From positions 192,882,001-192,946,000 of the forward strand of contig OX597815.1 of NCBI GenBank assembly GCA_951406725.2: a DNA stretch of 64,000 bases, written 5' to 3'. Origin of the DNA: Octopus vulgaris (Eukaryota). The notes beneath the pieces were generated by a model that saw only the letters and a list, made by a program, of their open reading frames with translations, was not told the DNA's origin and searched no databases. A program made the translations under genes and the position numbers. Below are positions 43,957 to 64,000 of this stretch, in pieces (positions within the stretch are counted from its first letter, which is position 1; each line of letters opens with the position of its first letter).

Positions 43957-44538
43957 TTAAACATATTTATCCATATTCTTCAGTTGGTATAAGCATTGTC
44001 AAAGAATTGCAAAGAAAGCAATGAGTAAGGTAGCACAAGGAAAGATCTCTCAGTAGATTGAAGAGGGAGAACAATAACATGATGAAGCAAAAGTTATATC
44101 TTAATTATCAATGGGCTAATTAGAAATAAATTACATAAATAGGAAACTGATGACCTTCAATATGAGAATGCTCATTGCAGTAACAGAACCATACAAGTTT
44201 AGGTATGCAATCAAAAAAGACTTACCTTAAAAGATATGATAAAAGATTACTAGTAGTAGGTATAAACCTAAATGTACATATAGATTTATAATTTTAATAG
44301 ACTGTAAATGCAGACTGTGGCTAACTGAGAGGCATATATTGACTTATGTGTTCAGTTCATTTAAGTTATTATTACATATTGGTTTTGAACAAGGCTACAG
44401 AGCACAAGATATGAAAGGAGACAGCCAACTCTTTAGCGAAAGTTGACCTCAGTAATAATGTTCAATGTGAAAACCAGTGGAAAGTGTGTTACAAATGGCA
44501 AACTATCTGGTGATATATTAAGGAGATGTAATATGTTA

Positions 44539-44750
44539 TTATGCTGGTCGTCCTCTTCCTCTGCCTCCACTAGCATCAGGTGCTTCGGATTTGGGATTTT
44601 TGATAGTTTCATCAACAGACAACAGTAGACAAGTTGCTTCTACAGCTGATAGAAGAGCGTTACATTTGACAACAGCAGGTTCCCAAATACATGCTTCAAA
44701 GTTATCTGTAATATCTTCATTCATCACATCGACTCCGTACCACATACCAC
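44539..44750 (-). CDS. CCT7: CCT7 terminal coding exon ([70 protein letters not shown])
   Basis: gtag acceptor, TAA stop at 44539-44541. WEP and SVDETIKNP motifs, and the GRGRGRP tail typical of CCT7. Confidence 0.98.
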
Positions 44751-45129
44751 CTACAAAATCAAAAGGAACAATTTCAATAAAGTTCTAATTTAATTTATAA
44801 GTAAGTCCTATAAAGCTTAACACAGCACGTAAAATTTTATTTACAGTAAATTTAATCCCCAAAGGATTCAATACAGATTTTTAAATATTTTTATGCTCTC
44901 CATGTCAGATCATTCTAATTTACTATTTTCTAAGTTTCCATATAAAAAAAAAAATTCCTTACTTCACCAGTATCATCATCATTTAACATTCGTTTTCTAT
45001 GCTGGTATGGCCAGGAACCACACTAAACTCAAATGTCTCTTTTGGCACATTTTTTACAGCTGGATGCCCTTCCTAACACTCACCACTTTACAGGGTGGTT
45101 TTACATGGCACCATAACCATTCCAGATGA

Positions 45130-45905
45130 AATCTTGAGGTCAAAGGAGATGTCCAATTATTCTGGATGGGTTATCTATGTATAATGATAAGCACAAAGCT
45201 TCTCATGGAGTGTCTTCTTTTCTTTTAGTCTACGCCACATCACTTATGAACATCAACCCCAACTCAAGAGCAAATTTCCCTGCAGGCTGCATGAGATGAC
45301 ATTGAGCATACCAACTCTGAGATAGTCCCTCATAAGACATATGCCATGTGGGCCTGAACATCAGACTTGAATGTATCCACGAGGTTACAGAAAAAAGTGC
45401 AGTGACAGGTCAATCTGACAAAAACAGTGGCCAGCAAATTTTAACCATCTTTGATTGATTGTCTGTCTGATGAGCAGTAAAGATCCATACAGTGACTTAA
45501 TTGATGTATGGTCATCATAAGAAATATTAAAGGACTTGTATAAAAGTTGAGTGTATATGCTGTCTGACGTACAACTGCAAATGCTCCACATCTCACAAAC
45601 CAGGAGTTGGCTGTCATTGAAGTCGATCTCTCAATAAACTGTTTGAAGATAAAGACCATCATCATTGGTGAAAATGATGGTGAGTGTGTGGTGATACACT
45701 TACATTAGGACACATCAATTCAGATGCTTAATTTCTGGTACCTGGGCTCTTGTATTCATTCTACCAGTACAATCAGCAGTCAACAAGATATGGAAAATTT
45801 GGAAAGGACCACAACTGTAAAGTGACCAAAAACCAAGCCTATTTCATGCCACAGTAGAATCTGTTCTGCTCTATGGCTCTGAATGTTTGTCCCTTATGGT
45901 GACTC
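45130..45905. pseudogene. Degenerate RTE-like LINE RT C-terminal fragments in opposite orientations
   Basis: Plus: FWYLGS and FHATVESVLLYGSEC. Minus: DSIYTQLL...QRWLKFAGHCF. Confidence 0.7.
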
Positions 45906-46390
45906 TATAGTGATTATCCATGAAGTATGCTTTACTGTTAAATCCAAATACAGAAGATGAATAAAAACTGCACCTATTTGAACTGGTGTCTATTCACAAT
46001 ATTTAAATAAAACTGAATCTCGATATAAAAGTGTTCCGAAGAAAAATATGAGATGTTAATTCATGATCCCCGAGCAGAACATCTAATATCTTAGCAACCA
46101 ATCTATCCATTTGTGTGTGTGTGTGTGCATAATACACACACACAATGCAAAATGGAATTTTAAATAATCCAGAAAGGAGCAGATAAATTCACTATTATTT
46201 TACAAAATCTTGGGAAGAAAAAAAGAGAGAGTACAGAAAAACCTTAATTTTCATATTGAAATTATAAAGAAACAGTCTACGCAATTTTAAATCCCTTCAT
46301 ATGGAAAATTTATGGTTAAAATACACTACACAGAAGGATTTATAGATTATATGTACTATTTCAGAAAGTTTATTTTATCTTTTTACTTAC

Positions 46391-46579
46391 CTTGAGCATG
46401 TTTTTGTCTTAGTTTATTCAAGATGTTGGTAGAATCAAATCCAGCGTTATCACTTAATTGACGTGGAATTATTTCTAATGCTTTTGCTATGGCACCAATT
46501 AGTAACTGGTCTTTCCCGGCAATTGTTCGAGAATATTCTCTCAAGTAACGACTCAATTCTATTTCTATAGCACCACCGC
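46391..46579 (-). CDS. CCT7: CCT7 coding exon ([63 protein letters not shown])
   Basis: 189 bp, ttag/gtaagt. Chaperonin motifs GGGAxE and [16 protein letters not shown]. Confidence 0.98.
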
Positions 46580-47275
46580 CTAAAATAAAATATCACACAA
46601 CATTAAGATTCAACCGTACTTACAATTTCATTTAAATCTTTTTTAATATGATTCTTTTTTTTTTTTTACTTTCTTAAAAACGATGACTATGATATATCTT
46701 TGACAACTAAAATGTCACAACATCAGAACAAGATTGGCAAACAGCCAATCATGAAAGACCTTGTGACTGTAACCTTCCTCAAGAAAACCCATTTATATAT
46801 TCACTTACCATAGAAATTCAATATATGGAACAACTAAGATAATTTTTTTTTTTAATATTTAGCTCTAATAGCTAATTAAAAATCACCCTAGCCCACACAC
46901 CTCTTGAAAACGATGGTTTATTACTTATGGCCAACCTCATCTAAAAGACAAATTTGAAGGCTTTGTTACAAGATATTGAAAATACTGGGAAAAAATACAA
47001 GAAAGAAATGAAGTGATCAATGCCAGGCCATAAAAGGGTTTTCAGAAACCACACAAAATTTCAGACACAACTGGCACAGTACAAGACTATGCAAGAGAAA
47101 GAAAGCCAACCAAGGTCGCTTAAAACAGGGCAAGCAACATGTGTAAGTTACTAATTATAGCACTTGCCAGATAAATGTGTGTGAGTATATATATATAAAA
47201 AAAAAAAAGTGCCCCAGCATGGCCACAGCTTGTGAGCTGAAACTAGATTAAAAAAAAAAAAAGCGTGTTTGCATG

Positions 47276-47420
47276 TGGAGGCACATGGCCTAGTGGTTAG
47301 AGCAGCAGACTACGGTTGAGGGATCGCCAGTTCAAATCTCAAATCGGGCGATGTGTGGGTGTTTATGAGTGAAATACCCAAGCCCCACGTAGCTCCAGCA
47401 GAAGGTAATGGCGAACTTCT
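47276..47420 (+). mobile_element. SINE family 3 5' fragment
   Basis: gtggaggcacatggcctagtggttagagcagc head. Confidence 0.75.
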
Positions 47421-47842
47421 GTAAATATGACAGGTTCAACAACTCAGTCTGCTTGGTCTAAAGGGGTGGTTTCCAACCAGGGTGCACATGACCCTTGGCA
47501 AGTCCATACAAGATTTTGTCGTTAAAATCTATGTGCAATCTTTTTTTATACAATTTCCAATAATATTTCAATTATTGAAATATAATATATATTTTTTCTT
47601 AAAACATCGAATGGTTGCGATCAAGGGGAGATAAATCGAGTTAAGAAACTAGTTGCAAATAATTAGTGATGGACGATATGTAATAGCTGCTGTTTTGTTA
47701 TTTACAGTGAAATTCTGCAAATACTAATAAAAAACAAAATGCAAGTAAAATGTTTCATATTATCAAGTTTACTTTGACAACAGAAGACCTTGCTTAAGAC
47801 ACTATTATAATAAGAACAAAATGAAATCTGAAAGTATCTCAC

Positions 47843-47994
47843 CAGCGACAACAGCATCATTTTTCAAAGCCCTTCGCACAATCATAATGGCATCATGGAG
47901 AGATCTTTCGGTCTCTTCAATAAATTGTTCGGCACCACCTCTCAGAATCATTGTGCAGGTTTTCGCTTGGGGACATCCAGTGAAAATGTTATAC
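47843..47994 (-). CDS. CCT7: CCT7 coding exon ([50 protein letters not shown])
   Basis: 152 bp, ttag/gtgag. Motif [27 protein letters not shown]. Confidence 0.98.
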
Positions 47995-48129
47995 CTAACA
48001 TCAAGTACAGCAATAAGAAAACATTAGTATCACTAACCTTAATAGTCAATTCTCAAAATTATCAGTGTGACCACTTCACTGAGGATACAACCTGCTTTTG
48101 AACTAACAAAATTTATTACTAAACAGAGT

Positions 48130-48392
48130 CATCATCATCATCCTCATCGTCGTTTAACGTCCGTTCTCCATGCTAGCATGGGTTGGACGGTTCGACCGGG
48201 GATCTGGGAAGCCAGAAGGCTGCACCAGGCTCCAGTCTAATCTGGCAATGTTTCTACAGCTGGATGCCCTTCCTAACGCCAACCACTCCGTGAGTGTAGT
48301 GGGTGCTTTTTACGTGCCACCTGCACTGGTGCCAGGCGAGGCTGGCATCGGCCACGGTCGGATTGGTGCATTTTACGTGCCACCTGCACGGA
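48130..48392 (-). mobile_element. SINE family 4, young copy
   Basis: Near-identical to 43629-43808. Confidence 0.87.
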
Positions 48393-48643
48393 ACCCAGTT
48401 GAGAAGAAAAGTGAGAAATTTACATTTATTTTACTTTAATATTTTATGTCTTGCAATGCAGTAATATATCTGGATATATTGTGAAGTAAATAACACAATA
48501 AAAAGACCATTTTTTATTAACTTTCATTGCGAATGAAAGCTGTAGTCTATATGTTCTTTTTGCTGTAGCATAGTATACACATAATTACAATTCGAAAGAA
48601 TCAACCAACAAACTGTATGTTGTAAAAGAATCGATATATTGAG

Positions 48644-48824
48644 ATATGTTGGTTTCAAAGACTAAGTTCTACCAAATAAATTTGACAGAACAACTCTCAT
48701 GAAACCAAAATAGTATCAAAGTAAAACCAGAACAGTTCGACTTGTTGATACAATAGTTTTAGTATCCCACAAATGTAACACTGTATGACAATAGCAGACA
48801 TCCAGTTGACTTGTATGTGGTATT
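48644..48824 (-). ncRNA. SNORA74: Box H/ACA snoRNA, U19/SNORA74 (snR191)-like, copy A1
   Basis: 5' hairpin CCACA/UGUGG with pocket AGUCA...GUUAC and H box AUACUA 14 nt later. Middle hairpin GUAUCAA/UUGAUAC. 3' hairpin GGUUUCA/UGAAACC with pocket GAGAGU...UAGU and ACA 15 nt later. Pockets pair with 28S helix 69 GUAACUAUGACUCUC. Confidence 0.9.
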
Positions 48825-49223
48825 CCAGAAAAATGAGTTTTGGAAATTGTTATTCATAAACCAATTCTGATGTCTAATATATTTGAGATAATAGTGGAGC
48901 TAACAACAGCAATTCATGCACCAGTATTACTATATTACATTTGAAATTCAATGTATTCAAAAATCTTTGGTGAAACCCAGTATTTTGTGATTCATGCACT
49001 GTAAAAGAAAGCTGGTAATCAAGGTGTATGTTTGATAAGCTGCAACTAAACGAGAATGATTAGAGCAAAGCATTCAGATGAAAACCATGCCAAATCAGAC
49101 TGGAGTCTGAGGTAGCCTTCCTCTGTGCCAGCCCAGTCAATCCGTTCAAATGGACATTAAATGATGACGACGATGATGATAAGAATTATACCAATACAGT
49201 TGGGTAAGAATATTAATAGAATG

Positions 49224-49362
49224 TTATGTAGGTTTCATTTATCAAGTTCTACCATATTATGTTTGATAGAACAACTCTCGTGTAACCAGATTAGTTTTAA
49301 TATTCCACAAACGCAATACTGTATGACAATATTAGGCATCCAGTTGTCTTAAACTGTGGTAC
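49224..49362 (-). ncRNA. Two-hairpin H/ACA snoRNA-like derivative of U19, copy B1
   Basis: Aligns to the A copies but lacks the 43-nt middle hairpin. Keeps CCACA/UGUGG, ACUG/CAGU and GUUCUAUCA/UGGUAGAAC stems, H box AUAUUA and ACA at the same 14/15-nt spacing. Antisense elements altered. Confidence 0.7.
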
Positions 49363-50133
49363 ACTTTATATATAAAAAACAAATCATATTATTAATGAAC
49401 ATTGTTAATCATAATGATGTATATACAAAATTATTAGTTAATCAATAACACTGTGTTAAAGGTACAAGGTTTATTAAATACAGTTAGATAAGTCTTTAAT
49501 TAGCTCAAAGCATTCATTCAATATTTTCAAAAACAAATAATTCTAAAGACTAAGAAAGGAAACACCACCCATAGTGTTACATTTAATACTGAACAAGATA
49601 TTATTTAATAAATTCATATCAATTAATAAAAGTCTACTAAAAATTATATTTTGTGTAAAAATTTTTGGCTTAACACTTTAGCATTCAACCTGGCCATATC
49701 CAGCCCAAATATTCCACCTGTTTTATGTTCAAATCAGCCAGAACTGGCCTCTCACACCTATCCTACTATGTCATTCTAAAAATAAACAATGTAAATAAGC
49801 ATTACATTTGATAGAGTGATGTGGATGCTAAAGGCTTAAGGAAGATATTGACTAAATCCCTAAAAATTCTTTACTGATTTTCAAATTAACCGGAACAGAT
49901 GTATTTTAATAGAAGTAGGAGAAATGAAAGGTAAAAATGACCTTTTGATATAATTTTATCACCCAGCACTAAGTTTTCTGATGATAAGGTATCACCCATA
50001 AATTCAGATTCCTTGTAAGATCTAAGCACAAAATACCAACTCAGTCATAAAGAATCAGATAAATATTTTTATTAGTTTTATGGACGAATCAAAAAATTCT
50101 ACAAATGTAGAGGAGTAAAGCTTAGCACAGAGG

Positions 50134-50314
50134 CAATGTTGGTTTCAAAGACTAAGTTCTACCAAATAAATTTGACAGAACAACTCTCATGAAACCAAAA
50201 TAGCATCAAAGTAAAACAAGAACAGTTCGACTTGCTGATACAATAGTTTTAGTATCCCACAAATGTAACACTGTATGACAATAGCAGACATCCAGTTGAC
50301 TTGTATGTGGTATT
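50134..50314 (-). ncRNA. SNORA74: U19/SNORA74-like H/ACA snoRNA, copy A2
   Basis: Same three-hairpin fold, boxes and antisense elements as A1. Confidence 0.88.
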
Positions 50315-50968
50315 TCAGATAAATAAGCCCTTTTGAAATTGTCAGTCATAAACCAATTCTGATGTCTAATACATTTGAGATAATAGTGACGCTAACAACG
50401 ACAATTCATGTACCAGTATTACTATATTACTTATGAGATTCAATGTATTCAAAAATCTTTAGTGAAACCAAGTATTTTGTGATTCATGCACTGTAAAAGA
50501 AAGCTGGTAATCAAGGTGTATGTTTGATAAGCTACAAGTAAACGAGACAGACAATCAACTTAATATGTAATAAATTAGAAAGGTTAAAATAATTGACCAC
50601 AATATCATCATCATAATCATTTTAACAACACAAGATATAAATTAGTGAGATGACCAGGAAATGAAATATTAGATACAGCAAATATATTCATCCCATCACA
50701 CACACATTCAGCTGCCTTACAAGATCAAAGCAATGAAGCACCAATTCGTGCTGGTGGCATGTAAATGCACCCATTACACTCTTGGAGTAGTTGGCATTGG
50801 GAAGGGCATCCAAACGCAGAAAACCATGCCAAATCAGACTGGAGTCTGAGGTAGCCTTCCTCTGTGCCAGCCCAGTCAATCTGTTCAAACAGACATTAAA
50901 TGATGACGATGATGATGATGATGATAAGAATTATACCAATACAGTTGGGTAAGAATATTAATAGAATG

Positions 50969-51107
50969 TTATGTAGGTTTCATTTATCAAGTTCTACCAT
51001 ATTATGTTTGATAGAACAACTCTCGTGTAACCAGATTAGTTTTAATATTCCACAAACGCAATACTGTATGACAATATTAGGCATCCAGTTGTCTTAAACT
51101 GTGGTAC
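50969..51107 (-). ncRNA. Two-hairpin H/ACA snoRNA-like derivative, copy B2
   Basis: Essentially identical to B1. Confidence 0.7.
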
Positions 51108-51995
51108 ACTTTATATATGAAAAATAAATCATGTTATTAATGAACATTGTTAGTCATAATGATGTATATACAAAATTATTAGTTAATCAATAACACTGTG
51201 TTAAAGGTACAAGGTTTATTAAATACAGTTAGAAGATAAGACTTTAATTAGCTCAAAGCATTCATTCAATATTTTCAAAAACAAATTTGGTAATTATGAA
51301 TAAATAATTCTAAAGCCTGAGAAAGGAAACACCATCCATAGTGTTACATTTAATACTGAAAAGATAATATTTAATAAATTCATATCAATTAATACAAAGT
51401 TTACTAAAAATTATATTTTGTGTAAAAACATTTGGCTTAACATTTCAGCATTCAACCTGGCCATATCCAGCCCAAATATTCCACCTGTTTTATGTTCAAA
51501 TCAGCCAGATCTGGCCTTTCCTACCTATCCTACAATGTCATTCTAAAATAAACAATCACATCATTGAAATATTGAATGCATAAGTAATTTAAACCAATGT
51601 GAATAAGCATTACATTTGACAGAGTAATGTGGATGCTAAAGGCTTAAGGAAGATATCGACTAAATCCCTGAAAATTCTTTACTGATTCTCAAATTAACCG
51701 GAACAGATGTATTTTAATAGAAGTATGAGAAATGAAAGGTAACAATGACCTTTTGATATAATTTTATCACCCAGCATTGTTTTATAATTAGACTATTTAA
51801 TAAAGTAGATAAGTGAATGCACACGGGGCACTAAGTTTTCTGATGGTAAGGTATTACCCATAAATTCAGATTCCTTGTAAGATCTAAGCACAAAATACCA
51901 ACTCAGTCATAAAGAATCAGATAAATATTTTTATTAGTTTTATGGACGAATCAAAAAATTCTACAAATGTAGAGGAGTAAACCTTAGCACAGAGA

Positions 51996-52176
51996 CAATG
52001 TTGATTTCAAAGACTAAGTTCTACCAGATGAATTTGACAGAACAACTCTCATGAAACCAAAATAGCATCAAAGTAAAACAAGAACAGTTCGACTTGTTGA
52101 TACAATAGTTTTAGTATCCCACAAATGTAACACTATATGACAATAGCAGACATCCAGTTGACTTGTATGTGGTATT
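51996..52176 (-). ncRNA. SNORA74: U19/SNORA74-like H/ACA snoRNA, copy A3
   Basis: Same as A1. Two stem substitutions convert G-C to G-U. Confidence 0.86.
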
Positions 52177-52855
52177 TCAGATAAATAAGCCCTTTGGAAA
52201 TTGTCAGTCATAAACCAATTCTGATGACTAATATATTTGAGATAACAGTGGAGCTAACAACAGCAATTCATGTACCAGTATTACTACATTACTTATGAAA
52301 TTCAATGTATTCAAAAATCTCTAGTGAAACCCAGTATTTTGTGATTCATGGACTGTAAAAGAAAACTGGTAATCAAGGTGTATGTTTGATAAGCTGCAAC
52401 TAAACGAGAATGATTAGATCAAAGCATTCAGGGTTTTAAAAAATAATGACAGACAATCAACTTAATATGCAATGAATTAGAAAGGTTAAAATAATTGACC
52501 ACAATATCATCATCATAATCATTTTAACAACACAAGATATAAACTAGTGAGATGACCAGGAAATGAAATATTAGATACAGCAAATATATTCATCCCATCA
52601 CACACACATTCAGCTGACTTACAAGATCAAAGCAATGAAGCACCAATTCGTGCTGGTGGCATGTAAATGCACCCATTACACTCTTGGAGTAGTTGGCATT
52701 GGGAAGGGCATCCAAACGCAGAAAACCATGCCAAATCAGACTGGAGTCTGAGGTAGCCTTCCCCTGTGCCAGCCCAGTCAATCTGTTCAAACGGACATAT
52801 GATGATGATGATAAGAATTATACCAATACAGAGGGGTAAGAATATTAATAGAATG

Positions 52856-52994
52856 TTATGTAGGTTTCATTTATAAAGTTCTACCATATTATGTTTGATA
52901 GAACAACTCTCGTGTAACCAGGTTAGTTTTAATATTCCACAAACGCAATACTGTATGACAATATTAGGCATCCAGTTGTCTTAAACTGTGGTAC
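52856..52994 (-). ncRNA. Two-hairpin H/ACA snoRNA-like derivative, copy B3
   Basis: As B1, with one change in the 3' pocket (UUUAUA versus UUGAUA). Confidence 0.65.
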
Positions 52995-53785
52995 ACTTTA
53001 TATATAAAAAACAAATCATGTTATTAATGAACATTGTTAGTCATAATGATGTATATACAAAATTATTAGTTAATCAATAACACTGTGTTAAAGGTACAAG
53101 GTTTATTAAATACAGTTAGATAAGACTTTAATTAGCTCAAAGCATTCATTCAACATTTTCAAAAACAAATTTGATAATTATGAATAAATAATTCTAAAGC
53201 CTGAGAAAGGAAACACCACCCAGTGTTACATTTAATACGGAACAAGATATTATTTAATAAATTCATATCAATTAATACAAAGTCTACTAAAAATTATATT
53301 TTGTGTAAAAATTTTTGGCTTAACATTTTAGCATTCAACCTGGCCATATCCAGCCCAAATATTCCACCTGTTTTACGTTCAAATCAGCCAGATCTGGACT
53401 CTCCTACCTATCCTACTACGTCATTCTAAAAATAAACAATCACATCATTGAAATATTGAATACATAAGTAATTTAAACCAATGTGAATAAGCATTACATT
53501 TGACAGAGTAATGTGGATGCTAAAGGCTCAAGGAAGATATCAACTAAATCCCTAAAAATTCTTTACTGATTCTCAAATTAACTGGAACAGATGTATTTTA
53601 ATAGAAGTAGGAGAAATGAAAGGTAAAAAATGACCTTTTGATATAATTTTATCACCCAGCATTGTTTAATAATTAGACTATTTAATAAAGTAGATAAGTG
53701 AATGCACACGGGGCACTAAGTTTTCTGATGGTATGGTATTACCCATAAATTCAGATTCCTTGTAAGATCTAAGCACAAAATACCA

Positions 53786-53966
53786 AAATGTTGGTTTCAA
53801 AGACTAAGTTCTACCAGATGAATTTGACAGAACAACTCTCATGAAACCAAAATAGCATCAAAGTAAAACAAGAACAGTTCAACTTGTTGATACAATAGTT
53901 TTAGTATCCCACAAATGTAACACTGTATGACAATAGCAGACATCCAGTTGACTTGTATGTGGTATT
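53786..53966 (-). ncRNA. SNORA74: U19/SNORA74-like H/ACA snoRNA, copy A4
   Basis: Same as A1. A flanking spacer deletion stops a few nt outside the ACA box. Confidence 0.87.
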
Positions 53967-54512
53967 TCAGATAAATAAGCCCTTTTGACTTATGAGATTC
54001 AATGTATTCAAAAATCTTTAGTGAAACCAAGTATTTTGTGATTCATGGACTGTAAAAGAAAACTGGTATTCAAGGTGTATGTTTGATAAGCTACAAGTAA
54101 ACGAGACAGACAATCAACTTAATATGTAATGAATTAGAAAGGTTAAAATAATTGACCACAATATCATCATCATAATCATTTTAACAACACAAGATATAAA
54201 TTAGTGAGATGACCAGGAAATGAAATATTAGATACAGCAAATATATTCATCCCATCACACACACATTCAGCTGCCTTACAAGATCAAAGCAATGAAGCAC
54301 CAATTCGTGCTGGTGGCATGTAAATGCACCCATTACACTCTTGGAGTAGTTGGCATTGGGAAGGGCATCCAACTGCAGAAAACCATGCCAAATCAGACTG
54401 GAGTCTGAGGTAGCCTTCATGTGTGCCAGCCCACTCAATCTGTTCAAACGGACATTAAATGATGACGATAAGAATTATACAAATACATTGGGGTAAGAAT
54501 ATTAATAGAATG

Positions 54513-54651
54513 TTATGTAGGTTTCAGTTATCAAGTTCTACCATATTATGTTTGATAGAACAACTCTCGTGTAACCAGATTAGTTTTAATATTCCACAAA
54601 CGCAATACTGTATGACAATATTAGGCATCCAGTTGTCTTAAACTGTGGTAC
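54513..54651 (-). ncRNA. Two-hairpin H/ACA snoRNA-like derivative, copy B4
   Basis: As B1. Confidence 0.68.
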
Positions 54652-55542
54652 ACTTTATATATAAAAAACAAATCATGTTATTAATGAACATTGATAGTCA
54701 TAATGATGTATATACAAAATTATTAGTTAATCAATAACACTGTGTTAAAGGTACTAGGTTTATTAAATACAGTTAGGTAAGTCTTTAATTAGCTCAAAGC
54801 ATTCATTCAATATTTTCAAAAACAAATAATTCTAAAGACTAAGAAAGGAAACACCACCCATAGTGTTACATTTAATACTGAACAAGATAATATTTAATAA
54901 ATTAACCTATTTCATATCAATTAATACAAAGGCTACTAAAAATTATGATGGAAAATTAAATTTTGTGTAAAAACTTTTGGCTTAACATTTCAGCATTCAA
55001 CCTGGCCATATCCAACCCAAATATTCCACCTGTTTTATGTTCAAATCAGCCAAAACTGGCCTCTCCTACCTCTCCTACTACGTCATTCTAAAAATAAACA
55101 CTCACATCATTGAAATATTGAATACATAAGTAATTTAAACCAATGTGAATAAGCATTACATTTGACAGAGTAATGTGGATGCTAAAGGCTTAAGGAAGAT
55201 ATCGACTAAATCCCTAAAAATTCTTTACTGATTTTCAAATTAACTGAAACAGATGTATTTTAATAGAAGTAGGAGAAATGAAAGGTAAAAAATGACCTTT
55301 TGATATAATTTTATCACCCAGCATTGTTTAATAATTAAACTATTTAATATAGTAGATAAGTGAATGCATACGGGTCACTAAGTTTTCTGATGATAAGGTA
55401 TCACCCATAAATTCAGATTCCTTGTAAGATCTAAGCACAAAATACCAACTCAGTCATAAAGAATCAGATAAATATTTTTATTAGTTTTATGATCGTATCA
55501 AAAATTTCTACAAATTTAGAGGAGTAAAGCTTAGCACAGAGA

Positions 55543-55723
55543 CAATGTTGGTTTCAAAGACTAAGTTCTACCAAATAAATTTGACAGAACAACTCTCATG
55601 AAACCAAAATAGCATCAAAGTAAAACTAGAACAGTTCAACTTGTTGATACAATAATTTTAGTATTCCACAAATGTAACACTGTATGACAATAGCAGACAT
55701 CCAGTTGACTTGTATGTGGTATT
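55543..55723 (-). ncRNA. SNORA74: U19/SNORA74-like H/ACA snoRNA, copy A5
   Basis: Same as A1; boxes and pockets intact. Confidence 0.88.
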
Positions 55724-56226
55724 TCAGATAAATAAGCCTTTTGGAAATGATATCGAACCAAGTAAGAGACATTACCGACAATTCAGTTACTAGTACTATA
55801 ATAGAGCTTACTAAACAACACTGCGATCAAAACAAATTACAGTTGAACAACAATATTTCAAGTACTTTTAAAGTAAAATCACCAGGAAACACTTTCATGC
55901 AATATCTAATAACCAGTAATAGAATGTGAAGAATGTTGAAAACCTTGCTGAGCGTATATATTATGTATTTGATTATTGTGATGCAGATGATTTATTTACT
56001 CAAAACATCTGTTCAATATAACCTTTATCCATTTGTAAACATTAGATAAGCTACAGATTAGTAATAACTATGAATATGAATGATTATCATATGCAGCAAA
56101 ATGTAAAGATTTTCAGAGGATTAAAAAGAAATAATAATAATAATAATAAAAAAAGGGAGGGTCTGTCATTCACATGACTTAAAAAATTATCTATTTTCAC
56201 TCATTTCACTTCAAGTATATCATATA

Positions 56227-56580
56227 CTAACACTACGACCCGGCGTTGCCGGGTCATAGTCCTAGTGCATGCATGTGTGTGCACATACACGCGAGTACTG
56301 TCCAAATCTCCGACCAATCATATACAGCGCTAGCTGGCATTCAATTGGCGTATAAAGTTTCGGGCATTTTGATTGGGTTTTGGATAGAAAATTCACAAAA
56401 AAGTCACTTCCATTGATTTTTTAATGGCTTTGCAGGGTGACTGGAGAAATGTAAAGATGTGCACAACCACCCTTGGACGGTTTTGAATGACCATAGAAAG
56501 TACGAGCCCTCTAACTGAAAAATTGTGGATTTGTATAAAGGACACACATGCAGACATCTTGCCGTTTATATATATAGAGA
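56227..56580 (-). mobile_element. Non-autonomous Helitron
   Basis: On minus it starts A|TCTCTATATATATAAA and ends with a 13-bp GC hairpin (actatgacccggc-aac-gccgggtcgtagt) then TTAG|T; no TSD. Confidence 0.8.
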
Positions 56581-57127
56581 TCATATAATAATGGAGTCTA
56601 TTCACTATGTAAAATGTAAATAGAAAGAAAACGAAGACAAATCGGTTGAATAGAACTATATTTAAGGAGCCATCTAATAAACAAAACTATGGTTTACGAG
56701 TTGTTTTATGTATTCAAACAACCATAACAAAAATTGCAAAATTTATGCAAGAACTTTTGGCGAAGTCGTGACTGAAACATCAGCTTAATAAACAAGCTTT
56801 ATGAAATCAGTCCAAATTCACAAGTATTTTGGAATTTAAATTAAAACGCAGAAGGGTGAGATAAATTAGAAACATAATAGTAAATGGGTTAATTCATATC
56901 GGACTCAACCAATCAAGTTTATAGATTTCCAATGCCAAGCATATTTTTTTTGTGGAAGGTGTTGTGTCTTCAGGTAAAGATGTTTAAGATAGTTTTACTG
57001 TTAACCAACACATTTGGTAGCAATATTAAAGGAAAAGAAAACATATTCCTGTTATATACATAAACACAAGAATTTCTTTAGAGGATAGAGTTAAGGCTGC
57101 ATAAAACACAATAAGTTAATCAGTTAC

Positions 57128-57280
57128 CTGTCGCCTCCAATTTGCTGTTCTTCAAAATGTTCACATTTTCCAAGATTTTTCTCAGTCATCTTTTGAACTG
57201 ATGTTAAGATGGCACCACCACAAGCTTTCATGGTTCGATGAAGATCATCCTCAACTACACGGCCAGCACAAAACATGTCT
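57128..57280 (-). CDS. CCT7: CCT7 coding exon ([51 protein letters not shown])
   Basis: 153 bp, ttag/gtaac. DMFCAGRV motif; phases match both neighbours. Confidence 0.97.
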
Positions 57281-58027
57281 CTAAAAAATAAAAGTTGTAT
57301 TGTCAGACGACAGAAAGAGAAAATACTTCCATATTAAATCGACTCAACGCTGTGCTATGTATTCCTTTCACTACTCCCACAACCTTTAAAACTACACACA
57401 CACACCAACAACAATTTCTCCACTTAACTGTATTATATAAACTCCCACCACTAATGGTTCCGCAATTCATTATTTTTCACTTCAATCAAAGGTTTACGAC
57501 TACACTAAATACTTTGTCTTAATTACTTTCTCTCAAGCTGTATACATCATCATCGTTTAACATCCGCTTTCCATGCTGGCATGGGTTGGACGATTTTGAC
57601 TGAGGGCTGGCGAACCAGATGGCTGCACCAGGCTCCAATCTTGATTTGGCAGAGTTTCTACAGCTGGATGCCCTTCCTAACATCAACCACTCGTGGAGTG
57701 TAGTGGGTGCTTTTTACGTGCCATCTTATATATTAAACCTTCACACATTATATTTTATAGCAGAGAAGAATGATTATAGTCTTACAAGTTTGATTATTTG
57801 TTCAACCAATGAAGAAGTGTTTAGCTGAAAATAACCACTCAATAATTGGTACGCACATATTAAATCAAAGGCATCATATATTTGGAAGTGTCATAAGCAA
57901 AACAGATGAGTTTCAGAAATAATTCTTCACAACCAAAGAATTAGTAAACTGTTATAAAATCCTATACATACAAACACACACACACACACACACACTAACT
58001 CCCTCATAATATGAACACAGTATCACA

Positions 58028-58480
58028 TCAATCCTTCAGCATTTAAACCAGCCATATGCTGCCCAAATACTCTAGCCTTTCCTACTTTACAATGCCATTT
58101 TAAAAATAATCGTAAGGCGACCTGCTGTGCTTGAGGAGACCTATCGAGTCAAGTACATCAACATCAAAAAAGTCAAATGGAAATTGTAGTTGTGATACCT
58201 GTGCCGGTGGCACATAAAAAGCACCTACTACACCCACAGAGTGGTTGGCATTAGGAAGGGCATCCAGCTGTAGAAACTCTGCCAGATCAGACTGGAGCCT
58301 GGCACAGCCTCCTGACTCCCCAGACCCCAGTTGAACCATCCAACCCATGCTAACATGGAAAACGAACGTTAAACGACAATGATGATGTATCAAAGTCTTG
58401 CTGCTATGGGATAATGCACAATTCATTCAAAACTACCTGAGTAAATAAACATTACATTTGACCTGAATGATAAAGGGTTA
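58028..58480. mobile_element. piggyBac-like MITE interrupted by a family 4 SINE (about 58095-58388)
   Basis: cagcatttaaaccagcc left part and taaagggttaa right end, same family as 60932-61142. Confidence 0.7.
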
Positions 58481-58506
58481 ATGTTTGTGTTTATAGAAAG
58501 ACATAC

Positions 58507-58640
58507 CTATCAGCAAAATATTGTGTTGCTACATCTCCAATTGGTAATTTAGACAAAACTACATTGGCCCCACTTTTATGGATAGCTTCCAATTTATCGT
58601 AGAGAATAGACCATTCTGCATCCACAATAGACTGATATTC
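58507..58640 (-). CDS. CCT7: CCT7 coding exon ([45 protein letters not shown])
   Basis: 134 bp, acag/gtatgt. Apical-domain motif [19 protein letters not shown]. Confidence 0.98.
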
Positions 58641-60165
58641 CTGTAAGGGGAAAAAATTTTAAATTCAATATTACATATCAAATTGACTTTAAATATTAAC
58701 AGATTATAATAAATGGACTTCAATCTGGAATTAATTTAAATAACAAGTTTATGTTTCTTAATTACTTATTTACATATTTTTATGCTTCATCTGTTGTAGA
58801 TGAATTATTTTTAGTTTACAACTACTAATCAATCAGAATTATATATTTTTTCCTCAAAGACAATGAAAAGTAAAAGAAAAATATGTGTAAGATCAAGATT
58901 GAAGCTTGGTGCAGCCATCTGGTTTGCCAGCCCTCAGTCAAAATCGTCCAACCCATGCTAGCATGGAAAGCGGACGTTAAACAACAATGATGATGCATGC
59001 ACACACAAAAACAGTTCTGTTAGATGGCTTAGCTGAAGATATGCCTGCGTCAGTTGTTGACTGCCATGACACTGCATCCTTTAAGGCCCTCATGCTTTCT
59101 GAAATCCGTCGAAACTACACCTGATTATATATGCACTTTAGATGAGTTGTAGTGCACCTGAGCACTGTACACAATGTTTATTATTATTATTATTATATTG
59201 CTATGTCCTGTAACATTGAAAAGTTCTATATCACGGATAAATCTGCAGGTCTCTAAATCCCGAACTATAATTCAAATAGTGCTGTTTGGGAATAAAAACC
59301 TGAAACTAAATGTTCTTTTGTATGAGTAAGTTTAACTCCATTTTAGGAAAAACATTCTGTTTGTACCATGTGTGTATATTTTTTTGCCTTTTATCAAGAA
59401 AATTTCTCCAAATCTTTTTTCTTCTTTTGACTTTCAAGCACAACATCAGTTAATGCTGCAAGTGATAAGTTAAAACTCACTGATACAATCTGTTAATGAT
59501 TTAATTAGGAAACAATGCCCAAATATCAATATCTGGTGACCGTGTGTGAAAACACAGGTCGTCAAATCTTCACAACGAACACCAACAATCACTGTATCAG
59601 CAAATTTCATTCAAATTCACACAACAAGTATATTTTCATAAGACACCCGTGCCGGTGACAGCACCGCCTGACTGGCATCCGCGTTGGTGACCCGTAAAAG
59701 CACCAACCAATTGTGGCTGTTTGCCAGCCTGTTCTGGCACATAAAAAACACCCACTACACTCTCGGAGTGGTTGGCGTTAGGAAGGGCATCCAGCTGTAG
59801 AAACACTGCCAAATCAGACTAGAGCCTGGTGCAACTTCCATGGCTTCCAGACCCCTGTCAAACTGTCCAACCCATGCTAGCATGGAAAACGGACGTTAAA
59901 CGACAATGATAAGCTTGATACTGGACTGTCTGCATTTCTTTTGAATCTCTCGTTTCTAACAGGACAGTCATTTACATTGAGAAAGCATCTGAGAACATCA
60001 TGACTACTAAACACATCTCGTATAGTCATGGAATTTATAATATAAGACTACCAGGTCATTGGTTAAAAGTAAACTTCACAGAATACAAAAAAAAAATTAC
60101 CAAAATTCAACACAAAACCACAGCTAGAGCTGTGTGATAGATTAACAATAAAAATTAATAATTAC

Positions 60166-60330
60166 CTCTACATTATCAACTCTCACTTCAGCATTTTCTT
60201 TTTCAGCTTTCAATTCAAGTTCTACATTTAATAAAGCAAGCTTTGGACTTTCATAACTCTTCCGCTGCATCTCAAATCCAGCATAACTGAAGGTTTTTTT
60301 AAATGCTACTCCAGCAAACAATTTAGAGTC
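60166..60330 (-). CDS. CCT7: CCT7 coding exon ([55 protein letters not shown])
   Basis: 165 bp, gtag/gtaat. Contains the CCT7-specific [16 protein letters not shown] and [12 protein letters not shown] motifs. Confidence 0.98.
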
Positions 60331-60931
60331 CTACAAATAAAAAAAAACAATTTACAATATCTTCAAAAACTATGTACAAATACAGGTTGTCTTGGAATTA
60401 AATTTTTCACTAAAGCAGATTTATGTCAGCTGAGATGGATTAGCTAATTAAATACTGGCACGTAAAAGCACTCACTACACTCTCGGAGTGGTTGGCGTTA
60501 GGAAGGGCATCCAGCTGTAGAAACTCTGCCAGATCAAGATTGAAGCCTGGTGCAGCCATCTGGTTCGCCAGCCCTGAGTCATACGTCCAACCCATGCTAG
60601 CATGGAAAGCGGACGTTAAACGATGATGATGAGGATAAAAAGACTTTCCTAGTAGGTTTCTGTTCAGGAAAACAGAAATCACCCAACATAATTTCAATAA
60701 ACCTTATCCAACAATTAATTTCTCAGTTTTTCAAATAAATCAGAAAGTGTTCTTGTACCATTAGACAGACAACATCTAGAATACTGCACCATTCTAATAA
60801 TGAGCTTATTTAGTAAATTTGAAATTAAGCTTATTGAAAAGGTGATGGTAAATAGCAATATTTTAACCTCTTAACATTAGAGAACAAGAGAAATGGTTCA
60901 ATTAGAAACTGAAACCATGGCATAGATTTAA

Positions 60932-61142
60932 CCCTTTAGCATTTAAACCGGCCAAAAGTATTCTGCTTGTTTTATGTTCAAACTGGCCAGATCTGGTCTT
61001 TCACACCAACCCTACAATATCGTTTTAAAAATTAACAGCTACCTCATCAAAATCTCATAGCTACAAGGTAATGCCTGATTAATTCAAAACAATGTAGATG
61101 AAGAAGCATTAATTTTGGCAGAATAATGCAAACACTAAAGGG
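60932..61142. mobile_element. piggyBac-like MITE
   Basis: TTAA|CCCTTTAG...CTAAAGGG|TTAA. Confidence 0.88.
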
Positions 61143-61322
61143 TTAATTTACCAAGAATGTAAGGGCATCAAGAGACCAATCAATAATTGAAATTAGGCTT
61201 TACTGATAACATACTGGCATAAGATAATAGCATCTTAAAGGTTAAGTGTAAATGTTTATATAACAAAGGAACAAATAGATCAAATTTCCAACGTAGCCGA
61301 ATTACAAAAGATGAATATTTAC

Positions 61323-61494
61323 CTCAAGTGCACCTCCAGGCACTTTCTTCTTGCCAATCATATTTAAAGGTAGTAAGTCATCAAGCAACATAACAGCATC
61401 GACAACCATCTTAGCAAAGAATTCCTTCTGGTGAGCAACAAGTTTGGAACTAAGAGAAGTGGCAGCACATTTCTCCAATAAATTGCGTAATTCC
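61323..61494 (-). CDS. CCT7: CCT7 coding exon ([57 protein letters not shown])
   Basis: 172-bp exon, cctag/gtaaat. Near-identical to CCT7 motifs [15 protein letters not shown] and GGALE. Confidence 0.97.
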
Positions 61495-61612
61495 CTAGGC
61501 AAAAACATATATAAATAGATGAAGCATCAAGCAGGAAATAGTCATTCATTACTTTGTGAAACAAAGTGTATACAAGTGTAAGTTCCAATAACGAGTCCTA
61601 TAATACTCGTGT

Positions 61613-61775
61613 TTTATCAACAGTGCAAAAGTGAGCAGCTGGATTTAAGAGGCAATGGAAGAGTCCTGAAGACGACCCAAGGTCTTGACATCCTGCAACT
61701 GCCAGCACTGAAGAAAACATTGATCATGTTCACTACATGGAGATTGAAAACAGGCAATTGACTATAAATCAAAAA
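61613..61775 (+). pseudogene. mariner transposase N-terminal fragment
   Basis: LSTVQK*AAGFKR...EDDPRS*HPATASTEENIDHVH...RQLTINQ, with stops. Confidence 0.8.
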
Positions 61776-61951
61776 TCATATAAGGGTCAAGTGACACATC
61801 ACAAATTTTTGGCAGTAATTGAGTAAAAATGTACATCCAATGAATTATAACAAATACATCAAACTCAAAACTCCATTAACACCATATATTTCAACTCTCA
61901 TTTCTTTACAATGACAAAATCTCTTTATATATATATATATATAAATGTTAT

Positions 61952-62226
61952 AAGAAAATGGAGATAAGGATGTTAATTATTTATGATTAACAAATTAGTC
62001 ATCTTCAATTCTTACAGCTGTTTCAATTAATACTCAATAATTTAATTACAAATTTGTACATTAATTTTGCATTTATGTGACAAAAGCGTAGTTTCATCAG
62101 AGGGGGAAAAAATGCAAATTTGATGTACAAATCTGTAATTAGATTATTAAGTATTAATTGAAATGGCTGTAAGAGGTGATGACCAATTAGTTAATAAATA
62201 ATTAACTCCCTTATCTCCATTTTCTT
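61952..62226. repeat. Intronic inverted repeat, ~120-bp arms, probably Penelope-derived
   Basis: aagaaaatggagataagg...ttttgcattt versus aaatgcaaat...ccttatctccattttctt. Confidence 0.85.
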
Positions 62227-62526
62227 TTCTTCTTTTAAATAGATATAAACTATATGCTTAATATATATATACCTATTGTTTTAAGGGTATTTCATTCCCC
62301 AAAAATACTAGGTATTGAACCAGTATTTCTTTGGATGTAACCACCCCTTCATGTGGTTAACATAACCTCTAATTAAATTTATATATATATATATATTTAA
62401 GTATGTGAATGAATTATCCTAGTATTGATAATTCGGTTAATCGATACCTGGGTAGCAAATTCACGTCAGAAGTCACGGTTGAAGCTACATGCCAAGGGCA
62501 GAAACACACCGTGTTCTTGTGTGGTA

Positions 62527-62575
<49 letters not shown>

Positions 62576-62653
62576 TATGTATCAACAACAAACACTAACA
62601 AGTTCAAAGAAATTTTATGAAAAAAATGTAGGCATATTACAATTGAAACTTAC

Positions 62654-62706
62654 TTTTGGTCATCTTTCTTTACTTTCACTGCAATTTCTTTACATTTAGC
62701 AACAGC
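62654..62706 (-). CDS. CCT7: CCT7 (TCP-1 eta) internal coding exon, first in window (AVAKCKEIAVKVKKDDQK)
   Basis: 53-bp exon between ttttag and gtaagt. Translation aligns with human CCT7 AVNKIKEIAVTVKK. Phase 2 end joins the next exon. Upstream exons are not in the window. Confidence 0.92.
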
Positions 62707-64000
62707 CTAAAATAAAAAGTTAATGAAAGTTATTTTAATATTCTCAAACAATACTATATTCATGAGTATTTAAATCATGTTTTTAAGCACCAAATTAATT
62801 CTATTTGCCCTCTCTTAGCTGCTCAATGACCAAGTATTTATACAATTTTTATAAGGTAAAGTGTGTCTTGTTCTGTGTATATATATTGCCGCCCAACAGA
62901 AATGGAAGAAAAAAAAAAAAAAAAAAAAAAAGTTGCAGAATGTCATGTGCAGTTGCCAGTAAATGACCATAATATGGTGTAGAGTAGTTAACCTGGAACA
63001 GGGTCTCCCAAAGTGTTCTGCAAAACCCCAGGGTTCCCTGAAAGTTATCAGGGGTTCCATGTCTTTAAAAATAATGCCGAAAGAATCCACTACAAAAAGA
63101 GTTTAGAGAACCACTGATCTAGCAATTAACTAAATATTTTTAGGCTTACCCAAGTCATACAGGGGTGTTTGCAGTTGTTCACTGATATAGTTGTCTGTGA
63201 AACAAGTTTCTCACCATGTAAAAAGACGAACATATGGCGCATCTTTTATTGTATTTGGAGGTGAGGAAAATATAATGGTTGTATGGGAACCACTGATCTA
63301 GCAATTGATTGAATGTTTTCAGGTTTACCTAAGCCATGCCTTTGTATGAATTCAGACAGTGCTGTTTGTCAATAGTGCCGTCAGTGGAACACGTTTCTCA
63401 CCAAGTATGATGCATGTGTTTATTGTGTTTGAAGATGTATATGCATGCTTGCAGCATATCCTGTGCATTCATTTTAGTAATGGTGATGTAGCTTCCATCA
63501 ACAGATGTGTAGTGCTTGCTATTAAATGGTGCTTTACTATCAGCACCAAGCATTCCACCTATAGAGCAGGCTACAGTAAGGTAGCCACACAATTTTGTAA
63601 CAGTGTTATTTCTACATACAGGATAATACACTACCTTGACCCACAAATGTTATACTAGGGTTGGCTTTTATATGGGACCAATAGAAAATTCCCAATTTTT
63701 TGTCCATAAATAGTGGTGGTGGGGGTCACTTTTACATGAAATCGACTATTACTCGAGTAAATATGGTAATTGCAAAGGAAACTTTAATGGCATGCAATCA
63801 TGCCATGTCTGAATCCATTATTTATTATCAGTTTCAGTAAATTTCTTTCATATATGAAGTTAATTGGATCAATTTTCTGCAGTTTTAGAGAGAAACTACA
63901 TATAAAATACCATAAACTGTCTCATGTAAAAGTAACACCCCCACCCCACTATTTTAGGCGTTTACCAAAATTAAATCAGCCTAGTTTAAAACTTTTAATT

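Follow-up and report, generated by a model that had tools for sequence, protein, structure and literature searches.

Five predicted U19/SNORA74-type H/ACA RNAs alternate with an orphan paralogue in one CCT7 intron of Octopus vulgaris

The 64,000-nucleotide (nt) stretch of the Octopus vulgaris genome analysed here (the window; contig OX597815.1, positions 192,882,001 to 192,946,000) carries the chaperonin gene CCT7, one intron of which holds nine tandemly arranged sequences of the H/ACA small nucleolar RNA (snoRNA) type. An earlier note on this DNA had placed all nine within a single CCT7 intron, and this was borne out by a GT-AG intron that contains the whole array (Table 1). Five copies, called U, resemble the U19/SNORA74 guide RNA, and four shorter copies, called P, are paralogues of U. 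Repeat search and self-alignment gave the transcript order (U-spacer A-P-spacer B)x4-U, which comprises four units of ~1.5-1.9 kb and one extra terminal U. The spacers are 400-900 nt long and hold transposon pieces. These include a miniature inverted-repeat transposable element (MITE)-like sequence in spacer A, which has a very high contig depth, and fragments resembling a short interspersed element (SINE) in the four spacers B (49080-49175, 50754-50910, 52656-52810, and 54322-54470). The last copy, U_e, ceases to resemble the others one base past its ACA, and for the first copy, U_a, the resemblance fades ~28 bases upstream. The outer flanks of U_a and U_e have diverged; the RNAs themselves are 93-98% identical.

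CCT7 was also confirmed as the host gene. TCP-1 eta was the best match of the two exons that flank the intron (E value 2e-29 vs 2e-15 for the next chaperonin), and a second comparison returned eta only. A contig of run X1 (depth 620), a run taken by guess to be RNA, joins both exons directly; therefore, the host intron is one intron in the main messenger RNA (mRNA). No credible snoRNA match was found in the other CCT7 introns or in the 20 kb upstream. A DNA search of the genome (2.8 Gb, 227 contigs) with one U copy gave at least 13 matches among the best candidates that it scores, and all of them lay inside the host intron. As no copy was found outside this intron, the working guide probably comes from this locus. 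Genes of the CCT family are already known as snoRNA hosts, as with chicken TCP1 and CCT6A (PMC2653536).

Table 1. Features of the CCT7 host intron in transcript order (window positions; minus strand is CCT7 sense)
Feature	Position	Strand	Remarks
CCT7 exon upstream of host intron	57128..57283	-	
Host intron of CCT7	47995..57127	-	9,133 nt, GT...AG; between exons encoding ...QIGGDR and YNIFTG...
U_a, first U19/SNORA74-type three-hairpin H/ACA copy	55543..55720	-	48 bits; H box 55664-55659, ACA 55548-55546
Spacer A, between U and P (one of the four)	54652..55542	-	high-copy MITE-like element, short terminal inverted repeats, ~54990-55190
P_a, two-hairpin U19 paralogue, orphan pockets	54513..54649	-	H box AUAUUA 54592-54587, ACA 54518-54516
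Spacer B, between P and the following U (one of the four)	53964..54512	-	truncated SINE-like repeat ~54322-54470, antisense to transcript
U_b, U19-type copy	53786..53963	-	40.5 bits
P_b, paralogue copy	52856..52992	-	
U_c, U19-type copy	51996..52173	-	34.6 bits; two G-C to G-U stem changes
P_c, paralogue copy	50969..51105	-	
U_d, U19-type copy	50134..50311	-	45.1 bits
P_d, paralogue copy	49224..49360	-	
U_e, last U19-type copy	48644..48821	-	47.9 bits
SINE-like repeat, unique 3' flank of intron	48126..48345	-	inverted relative to spacer-B fragments
CCT7 exon downstream of host intron	47833..47994	-	

Every U copy measures 178 nt from the first stem to the third base after ACA. The Rfam family SNORA74 (RF00090) aligned with all five over model positions 1-201, at 48.0, 47.9, 45.1, 40.5, and 34.6 bits (E 1.5e-9 to 1.3e-5; as low as 1.8e-11 in a narrow scan). 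The gathering threshold of this family is 71 bits, and Rfam at gathering thresholds gave no match over the window. The earlier note had proposed a covariance-model search as a check; the alignment came out end to end in each U, but all scores were below that value. A search of the whole genome with the SNORA74 model also gave no match and was uninformative, as the control did not register either. The five copies fold as hairpin-H-hairpin-hairpin-ACA, as the note had described for the CCT7 sense strand. In all of them, an H box of the ANANNA form (AUACUA) follows the first hairpin, the ACA lies 3 nt from the predicted end, and the distances of 14 nt from pocket 1 to the H box and 15 nt from pocket 2 to the ACA agree with those given earlier. 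The three-hairpin structure leaves 99.0% of 302 cells paired, vs 35-41% when it is slid. The middle helix has 14 pairs, all paired in the five copies, with two wobble changes. Ten columns vary among the U copies, none of them in pockets or boxes; four are in stems, where the pair is kept each time. The pockets AGUCA/GUUAC and GAGAGU/UAGU are invariant and their letters agree with the SNORA74 consensus, and a U-U pair lies at the stem base of pocket 2. Judged from its sequence, U is likely an orthologue of the U19/snR191-type guide that falls outside formal RF00090 membership. The last hairpin of U_a (55536-55619) also resembled the mir-981 precursor at 27 bits, vs a cut-off of 51. This identity was rejected as probably a chance likeness, since the true mir-981 locus of the genome lies elsewhere (G000:C4:149549756-149549835, 63.3 bits).

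The targets of U were predicted by ranking 1643 uridines of the genome's own 28S (4,892 nt), 18S (2,649 nt), and 5.8S ribosomal RNA (rRNA), together with U1, U2, U3, U4, U5, and U6. Pocket 1 ranked first at 28S U3355 (GUAAC[U]A-UGACU, -14.4 kcal/mol), and none of 25 shuffled target sets was as good. Pocket 2 ranked first at U3357 (ACUA[U]G-ACUCUC, -15.3 kcal/mol), two bases further on. The Watson-Crick pairs with the octopus helix 69 number 5+5 for pocket 1 and 6+4 for pocket 2. Neither pocket is overwhelming alone, but two top ranks only two bases from each other, where U19-type guides are known to act, are jointly overwhelming. The helix-69 loop uridines named in the earlier note as targets of both pockets were thus recovered as predicted pairings, at rank 1 of 1643 in each case, and its U19/SNORA74/snR191-type identity is supported by these pockets and the full-length alignment. 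U3355 and U3357, in the 28S numbering used here, correspond to 2258 and 2260 in yeast, where snR191 guides both pseudouridines, described as conserved to humans (10.1101/2024.02.02.578723). On the evidence of alignment and pairing, it is highly probable that U is a U19-type helix-69 guide.

The second-best target of pocket 2 was U8 of the octopus U3 snoRNA (AAGACCA[U]G-CUUUUAAGG, -11.5 kcal/mol, with mismatches). The 3' strand of this pocket (UAGUCUU, within 55543-55600) is complementary to the 5' end of U3 (L041:1501-1520) beyond what pairing with 28S needs. Human U19 has been predicted to guide U8 of U3, which was not confirmed in the literature checked.

P is 137 nt long in its four copies and 77-83% identical to U over hairpins 1 and 3, with a 43-nt middle part deleted. 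An ANANNA box and an ACA stand at 14 and 15 nt in all four, and the P stems fit the U structure. The fixed differences between P and U are distributed unevenly: they affect 2 of 58 positions in stems, 0 of 6 in boxes, 12 of 31 in pockets, and 10 of 36 elsewhere (stem vs pocket, Fisher p=3e-5). P is also the least variable part of the unit, with 3 of 137 columns variable vs 117 of 1522 in the spacers (p=0.015; the columns are not independent). The minimum-energy fold of P alone is weak and unlike the U structure, and an A-A mismatch breaks one lower-stem pair of the last hairpin. SNORA74 did not match P, and the Rfam scores of P reached no better than E 0.66 (ceN81, 17.4 bits) and E 1.7 (SNORA41).

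A target of P beyond chance was not found in 28S, 18S, 5.8S, U1-U6, or U3, where shuffles were as good in 21, 16, 9, and 11 of 25, nor in 20 kb of the ribosomal DNA (rDNA) repeat, U12, or the CCT7 pre-mRNA within 44001-64000; these scans left out U11, U4atac, U6atac, 5S, transfer RNA, and mRNA. The 5' end of U12 (L091:1501-1512) is complementary by eye to the first pocket strand at 10 of 11 bases; it has no upstream uridine and was rejected as probably chance. Both P pockets carry a G-to-A change facing one shared helix-69 C (alignment columns 47 and 165), and for this reason a variant 28S with C-to-U was looked for; it was absent from all 17 helix-69 matches at up to two mismatches. A-to-I editing would restore the pairing at both positions. 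The most fitting label for P, predicted from sequence, is that of an H/ACA-like orphan paralogue of U19 with a conserved scaffold and altered pockets. The earlier count of nine H/ACA snoRNA genes is therefore correct as a count of copies, but four of them are one U19 paralogue without a found target rather than independent guides, so the number includes four RNAs of unproven function.

The four units differ from each other by 3.2-5.0%, and their alignment has 20 indel events, none within U or P. The 23 informative sites split 8/8/7 over the three possible groupings, a mosaic that is typical of repeated unequal exchange or conversion. Sequencing runs were compared on 53995-57400 (one unit plus flank) in 4 of 24 listed runs (X1, X6, X12, and X18). 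Letters specific to internal units were present in all four, for example at 55492-55516, and spacer B and the unique 5' flank were both present in X6, X12, and X18. None of the four runs had a contig spanning the whole compared stretch. The U contig depth was 80.6 vs 12.8-16.9 in the unique flanks in X6 (organism A), 146 vs 45-49 in X12 (organism B, with P at 114.5 and spacer B at 84.8), and 9.2 vs 6.6-7.7 in X18 (organism D). Contig depth does not measure copy number; taken as a hint, these ratios would fit some five copies in A, some three in B, and one or two in D. Organism B has P, and X6 and X18 have no contig cover of P, a gap that proves nothing. Divergent and mosaic units, together with internal-unit sequence in other samples, make an assembly artefact unlikely, and the array is very probably real. 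The five-fold tandem amplification proposed earlier is thus supported, and the single-copy assembly artefact that the note had raised found no backing.

Expansion by unequal exchange is probable. An old duplication of U may have led to a U-P-U arrangement, in which P would have lost the middle hairpin and, on an unchanged scaffold, its pockets would have drifted or been retargeted. If the U repeats on either side then recently underwent unequal exchange, this would yield n+1 copies of U and n of P, here with n=4. The genes for U1-U6 and U3 likewise occur in tandem arrays in this genome, with a spacing of ~1-8 kb and many more dispersed copies (U1 on contig C18; U2 on C3 and C23; U3 and U5 on C25; U4 on C4; U6 on C1). 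These arrays indicate that small-RNA genes are commonly amplified in place in this genome. The rDNA repeat of ~18.3 kb, with long 18S and 28S, lies at G000:C20:23.95-24.07 Mb. Ten more helix-69 matches outside the main rDNA array (C1, C3, C9, C16, C20, and C29) are probably dispersed rDNA fragments.

On the processing of the intron, a motif scan found neither a recursive splice site nor a strong acceptor that recurs throughout the units, and extra splicing is therefore without support. The spacer-B SINE-like pieces and the inverted copy in the 3' flank can form an imperfect duplex of ~150 bp, at -192 to -201 kcal/mol for three spacers and -108 for the fourth. Such a duplex may let in a nuclease that cuts double strands, though without specificity, and could be an ADAR or RNase III substrate. 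In the X1 contigs, the repeat unit is covered at a depth of ~6-8.5 and the unique intron flanks are uncovered; collapse of copies at low depth explains this pattern as well as stable RNA does. Elsewhere, Drosophila H/ACA loci are described as 'generally clustered' in introns (PMC3089462), and single-intron snoRNA clusters occur in plants and Plasmodium (PMC2656528). A mammalian intron with two snoRNAs gives rise to a snoRNA-ended long noncoding RNA (sno-lncRNA), the H/ACA-ended SLERT among them (PMC11028025; PMC5054931). The earlier note had argued that endonucleolytic cleavage or extra splicing would be needed to release the copies. This argument is incomplete, as it omitted the sno-lncRNA that exonucleases acting alone would leave, and its splicing option is unsupported.

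With modest confidence, the evidence is read as follows: the five U copies are predicted to guide both helix-69 uridines and alternate with four orphan P copies, in an array that likely grew by unequal crossing-over and whose RNAs are likely freed by spacer cuts and trimming. The sequence, boxes, fold, 28S pairing, single intron, and tandem structure are the observed part. Dyskerin small nucleolar ribonucleoproteins (snoRNPs) on U would convert U3355 and U3357, as those of human U19 and yeast snR191 do, and U8 of U3 may be a further target of pocket 2. In the spliced intron, endonucleolytic opening of the spacers and exonuclease trimming would free the internal copies, which is the least certain step. 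This is modelled on the single-intron H/ACA clusters of Drosophila, where such release is presumed, and partly cut, snoRNA-ended intermediates would be by-products. From this analysis, release of the internal copies as mature RNAs appears slightly more probable than not.

Several observations weigh against this account. The U scores of 34.6-48 bits are under the SNORA74 cut-off, and no stem pair of the five U copies has changed on both sides. The conservation of U does not significantly exceed that of the spacers (9 of 177 variable columns vs 117 of 1522 among units, p=0.29; columns not independent). Pocket 2 alone is not significant, as 6 of 25 shuffled target sets reach its score, and with a cruder score shuffled pockets equal pocket 1 in 7 of 60 cases and pocket 2 in 14 of 60. 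None of the spacer hairpins was conspicuous as a site for RNase III, and mammalian two-snoRNA introns yield sno-lncRNAs, not free snoRNAs (PMC11028025; PMC5054931). The genome DNA search scores the best candidates only, and the search with the Rfam model missed even the array copies.

The mammalian outcome points to a somewhat unlikely alternative in which exonucleases act alone. Trimming after debranching would halt at U_a and U_e and leave a ~7.1-kb H/ACA-ended sno-lncRNA (48644-55720), or a ladder of shorter forms, bearing as many as nine snoRNPs. The long RNA itself, or the rare intron loaded at a single copy, would then supply the guide activity, and P would serve as a scaffold module that binds protein. 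Both outermost elements are indeed intact U copies, the units lack repeated splice sites, this is the standard fate of two snoRNAs per intron, including SLERT (PMC11028025; PMC5054931), and P has kept its stems and boxes but not its pockets. However, the helix-69 modifications are highly conserved (10.1101/2024.02.02.578723), and, with a sole locus found, an efficient release of mature guides is favoured; clustered intronic H/ACA loci are also reported in insects (PMC3089462). A bolder version, in which a ~7-kb H/ACA-ended RNA with nine snoRNP modules acts as an invertebrate multivalent sno-lncRNA of varying copy number between related species, U guides helix 69 (and U3), and P is a lineage-specific guide for a non-ribosomal RNA, is improbable. 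The distribution of changes in P also bears on the doubtful idea that a single copy works and the array arose neutrally, through local unequal crossing-over in a genome rich in repeats, with internal U and all P copies as passengers and P as a decayed pseudogene homogenised by gene conversion. Neutral decay should affect stems and pockets equally, which is not what P shows; moreover, no other part of the unit varies as little as P, which is also found in organism B. The idea draws on the unexceptional conservation of U, the lack of a P target among 28S, 18S, 5.8S, U1-U6, U3, and U12, the A-A mismatch in P, the tandem snRNA and U3 genes, and the depth ratios, which hint that related species have fewer units. 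That assembly had wrongly multiplied a single-copy locus would fit the lack of a contig over the whole compared stretch, but it is extremely unlikely given the divergence and unit-specific indels of the units, the internal-unit letters in all four runs, the joint presence of spacer B and the unique 5' flank in three of them, and, as a hint only, the U depth in X6.

Compared with known guides, U is closest to human U19/SNORA74 (RF00090, clan CL00043), with which it shares three hairpins, an H box after hairpin 1, and 28 nt between the strands of pocket 2. The SNORA74 consensus equals U letter for letter at the pockets GUCA/GUUAC and UGAGAGU/UAGUCU. The model has 201 positions vs 178 nt in U, whose middle hairpin is shorter and whose score is under the gathering threshold. 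The human U19 host locus is SNHG4/MATR3. U lies in an intron of the protein-coding CCT7, whereas the human host transcript reportedly has little coding potential. The extra human U19 copies are dispersed retrogenes (PMC1802619), in contrast to the five tandem U copies in one intron. Yeast snR191 is like U in guiding two conserved helix-69 pseudouridines, a role that is predicted for U. It is a single-copy gene in a NOG2 intron, unlike the five tandem copies of U. The snR191 model was not among the U matches listed, from which one lower-scoring match of the same clan was left out. The first hairpin of the nematode ceN81 (RF01658) has the U pocket (AGuCA/GUUaC), and this model gave 27.4 bits vs U and 17.4 vs P; unlike U, ceN81 has two hairpins and a mismatched second pocket, and the scores are below its cut-off of 50. 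The ceN81 model has no listed clan and may be a split U19 homologue.

Of 27 loci picked up by a pattern scan of metagenomes, none had the full U19 layout or matched the CCT7 region; the three that looked best lay beside a plant-like gene and had no SNORA74 match. The literature, including PMC6984369, PMC12205218, and PMC11014333, gave no mollusc U19 and no CCT7-hosted cluster, within a thin coverage of subscription journals and with supplements or annotations that may list the locus; likewise, no record of CCT7 as a host for the U19 family was found. The guide type is already known, and what is of value is the orphan paralogue and the question of processing. U is likely the molluscan guide for two rRNA pseudouridines that are highly conserved, and it was overlooked at the Rfam cut-off. 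P offers a clean case of a snoRNA duplicate that keeps its scaffold while its guide pockets change.

The array resembles the intronic clusters of Drosophila, plants, and Plasmodium in having several snoRNAs per intron (PMC3089462; PMC2656528), and because single-intron H/ACA clusters have been reported in Drosophila, the CCT7 arrangement is a variation on a known one. It differs from those clusters in its 400-900-nt transposon-bearing spacers, its recent unit of ~1.5-1.9 kb, and the alternation of guide and orphan. The sno-lncRNAs, such as SLERT and those of the Prader-Willi syndrome (PWS) region, likewise have an intact snoRNA at both ends of an internal intron segment; these examples are mammalian with two snoRNAs (PMC11028025; PMC5054931), whereas the CCT7 array has nine. 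The diagnostic letters of nine copies in one intron could separate endonucleolytic processing, as in flies and plants, from sno-lncRNA processing, as in mammals.

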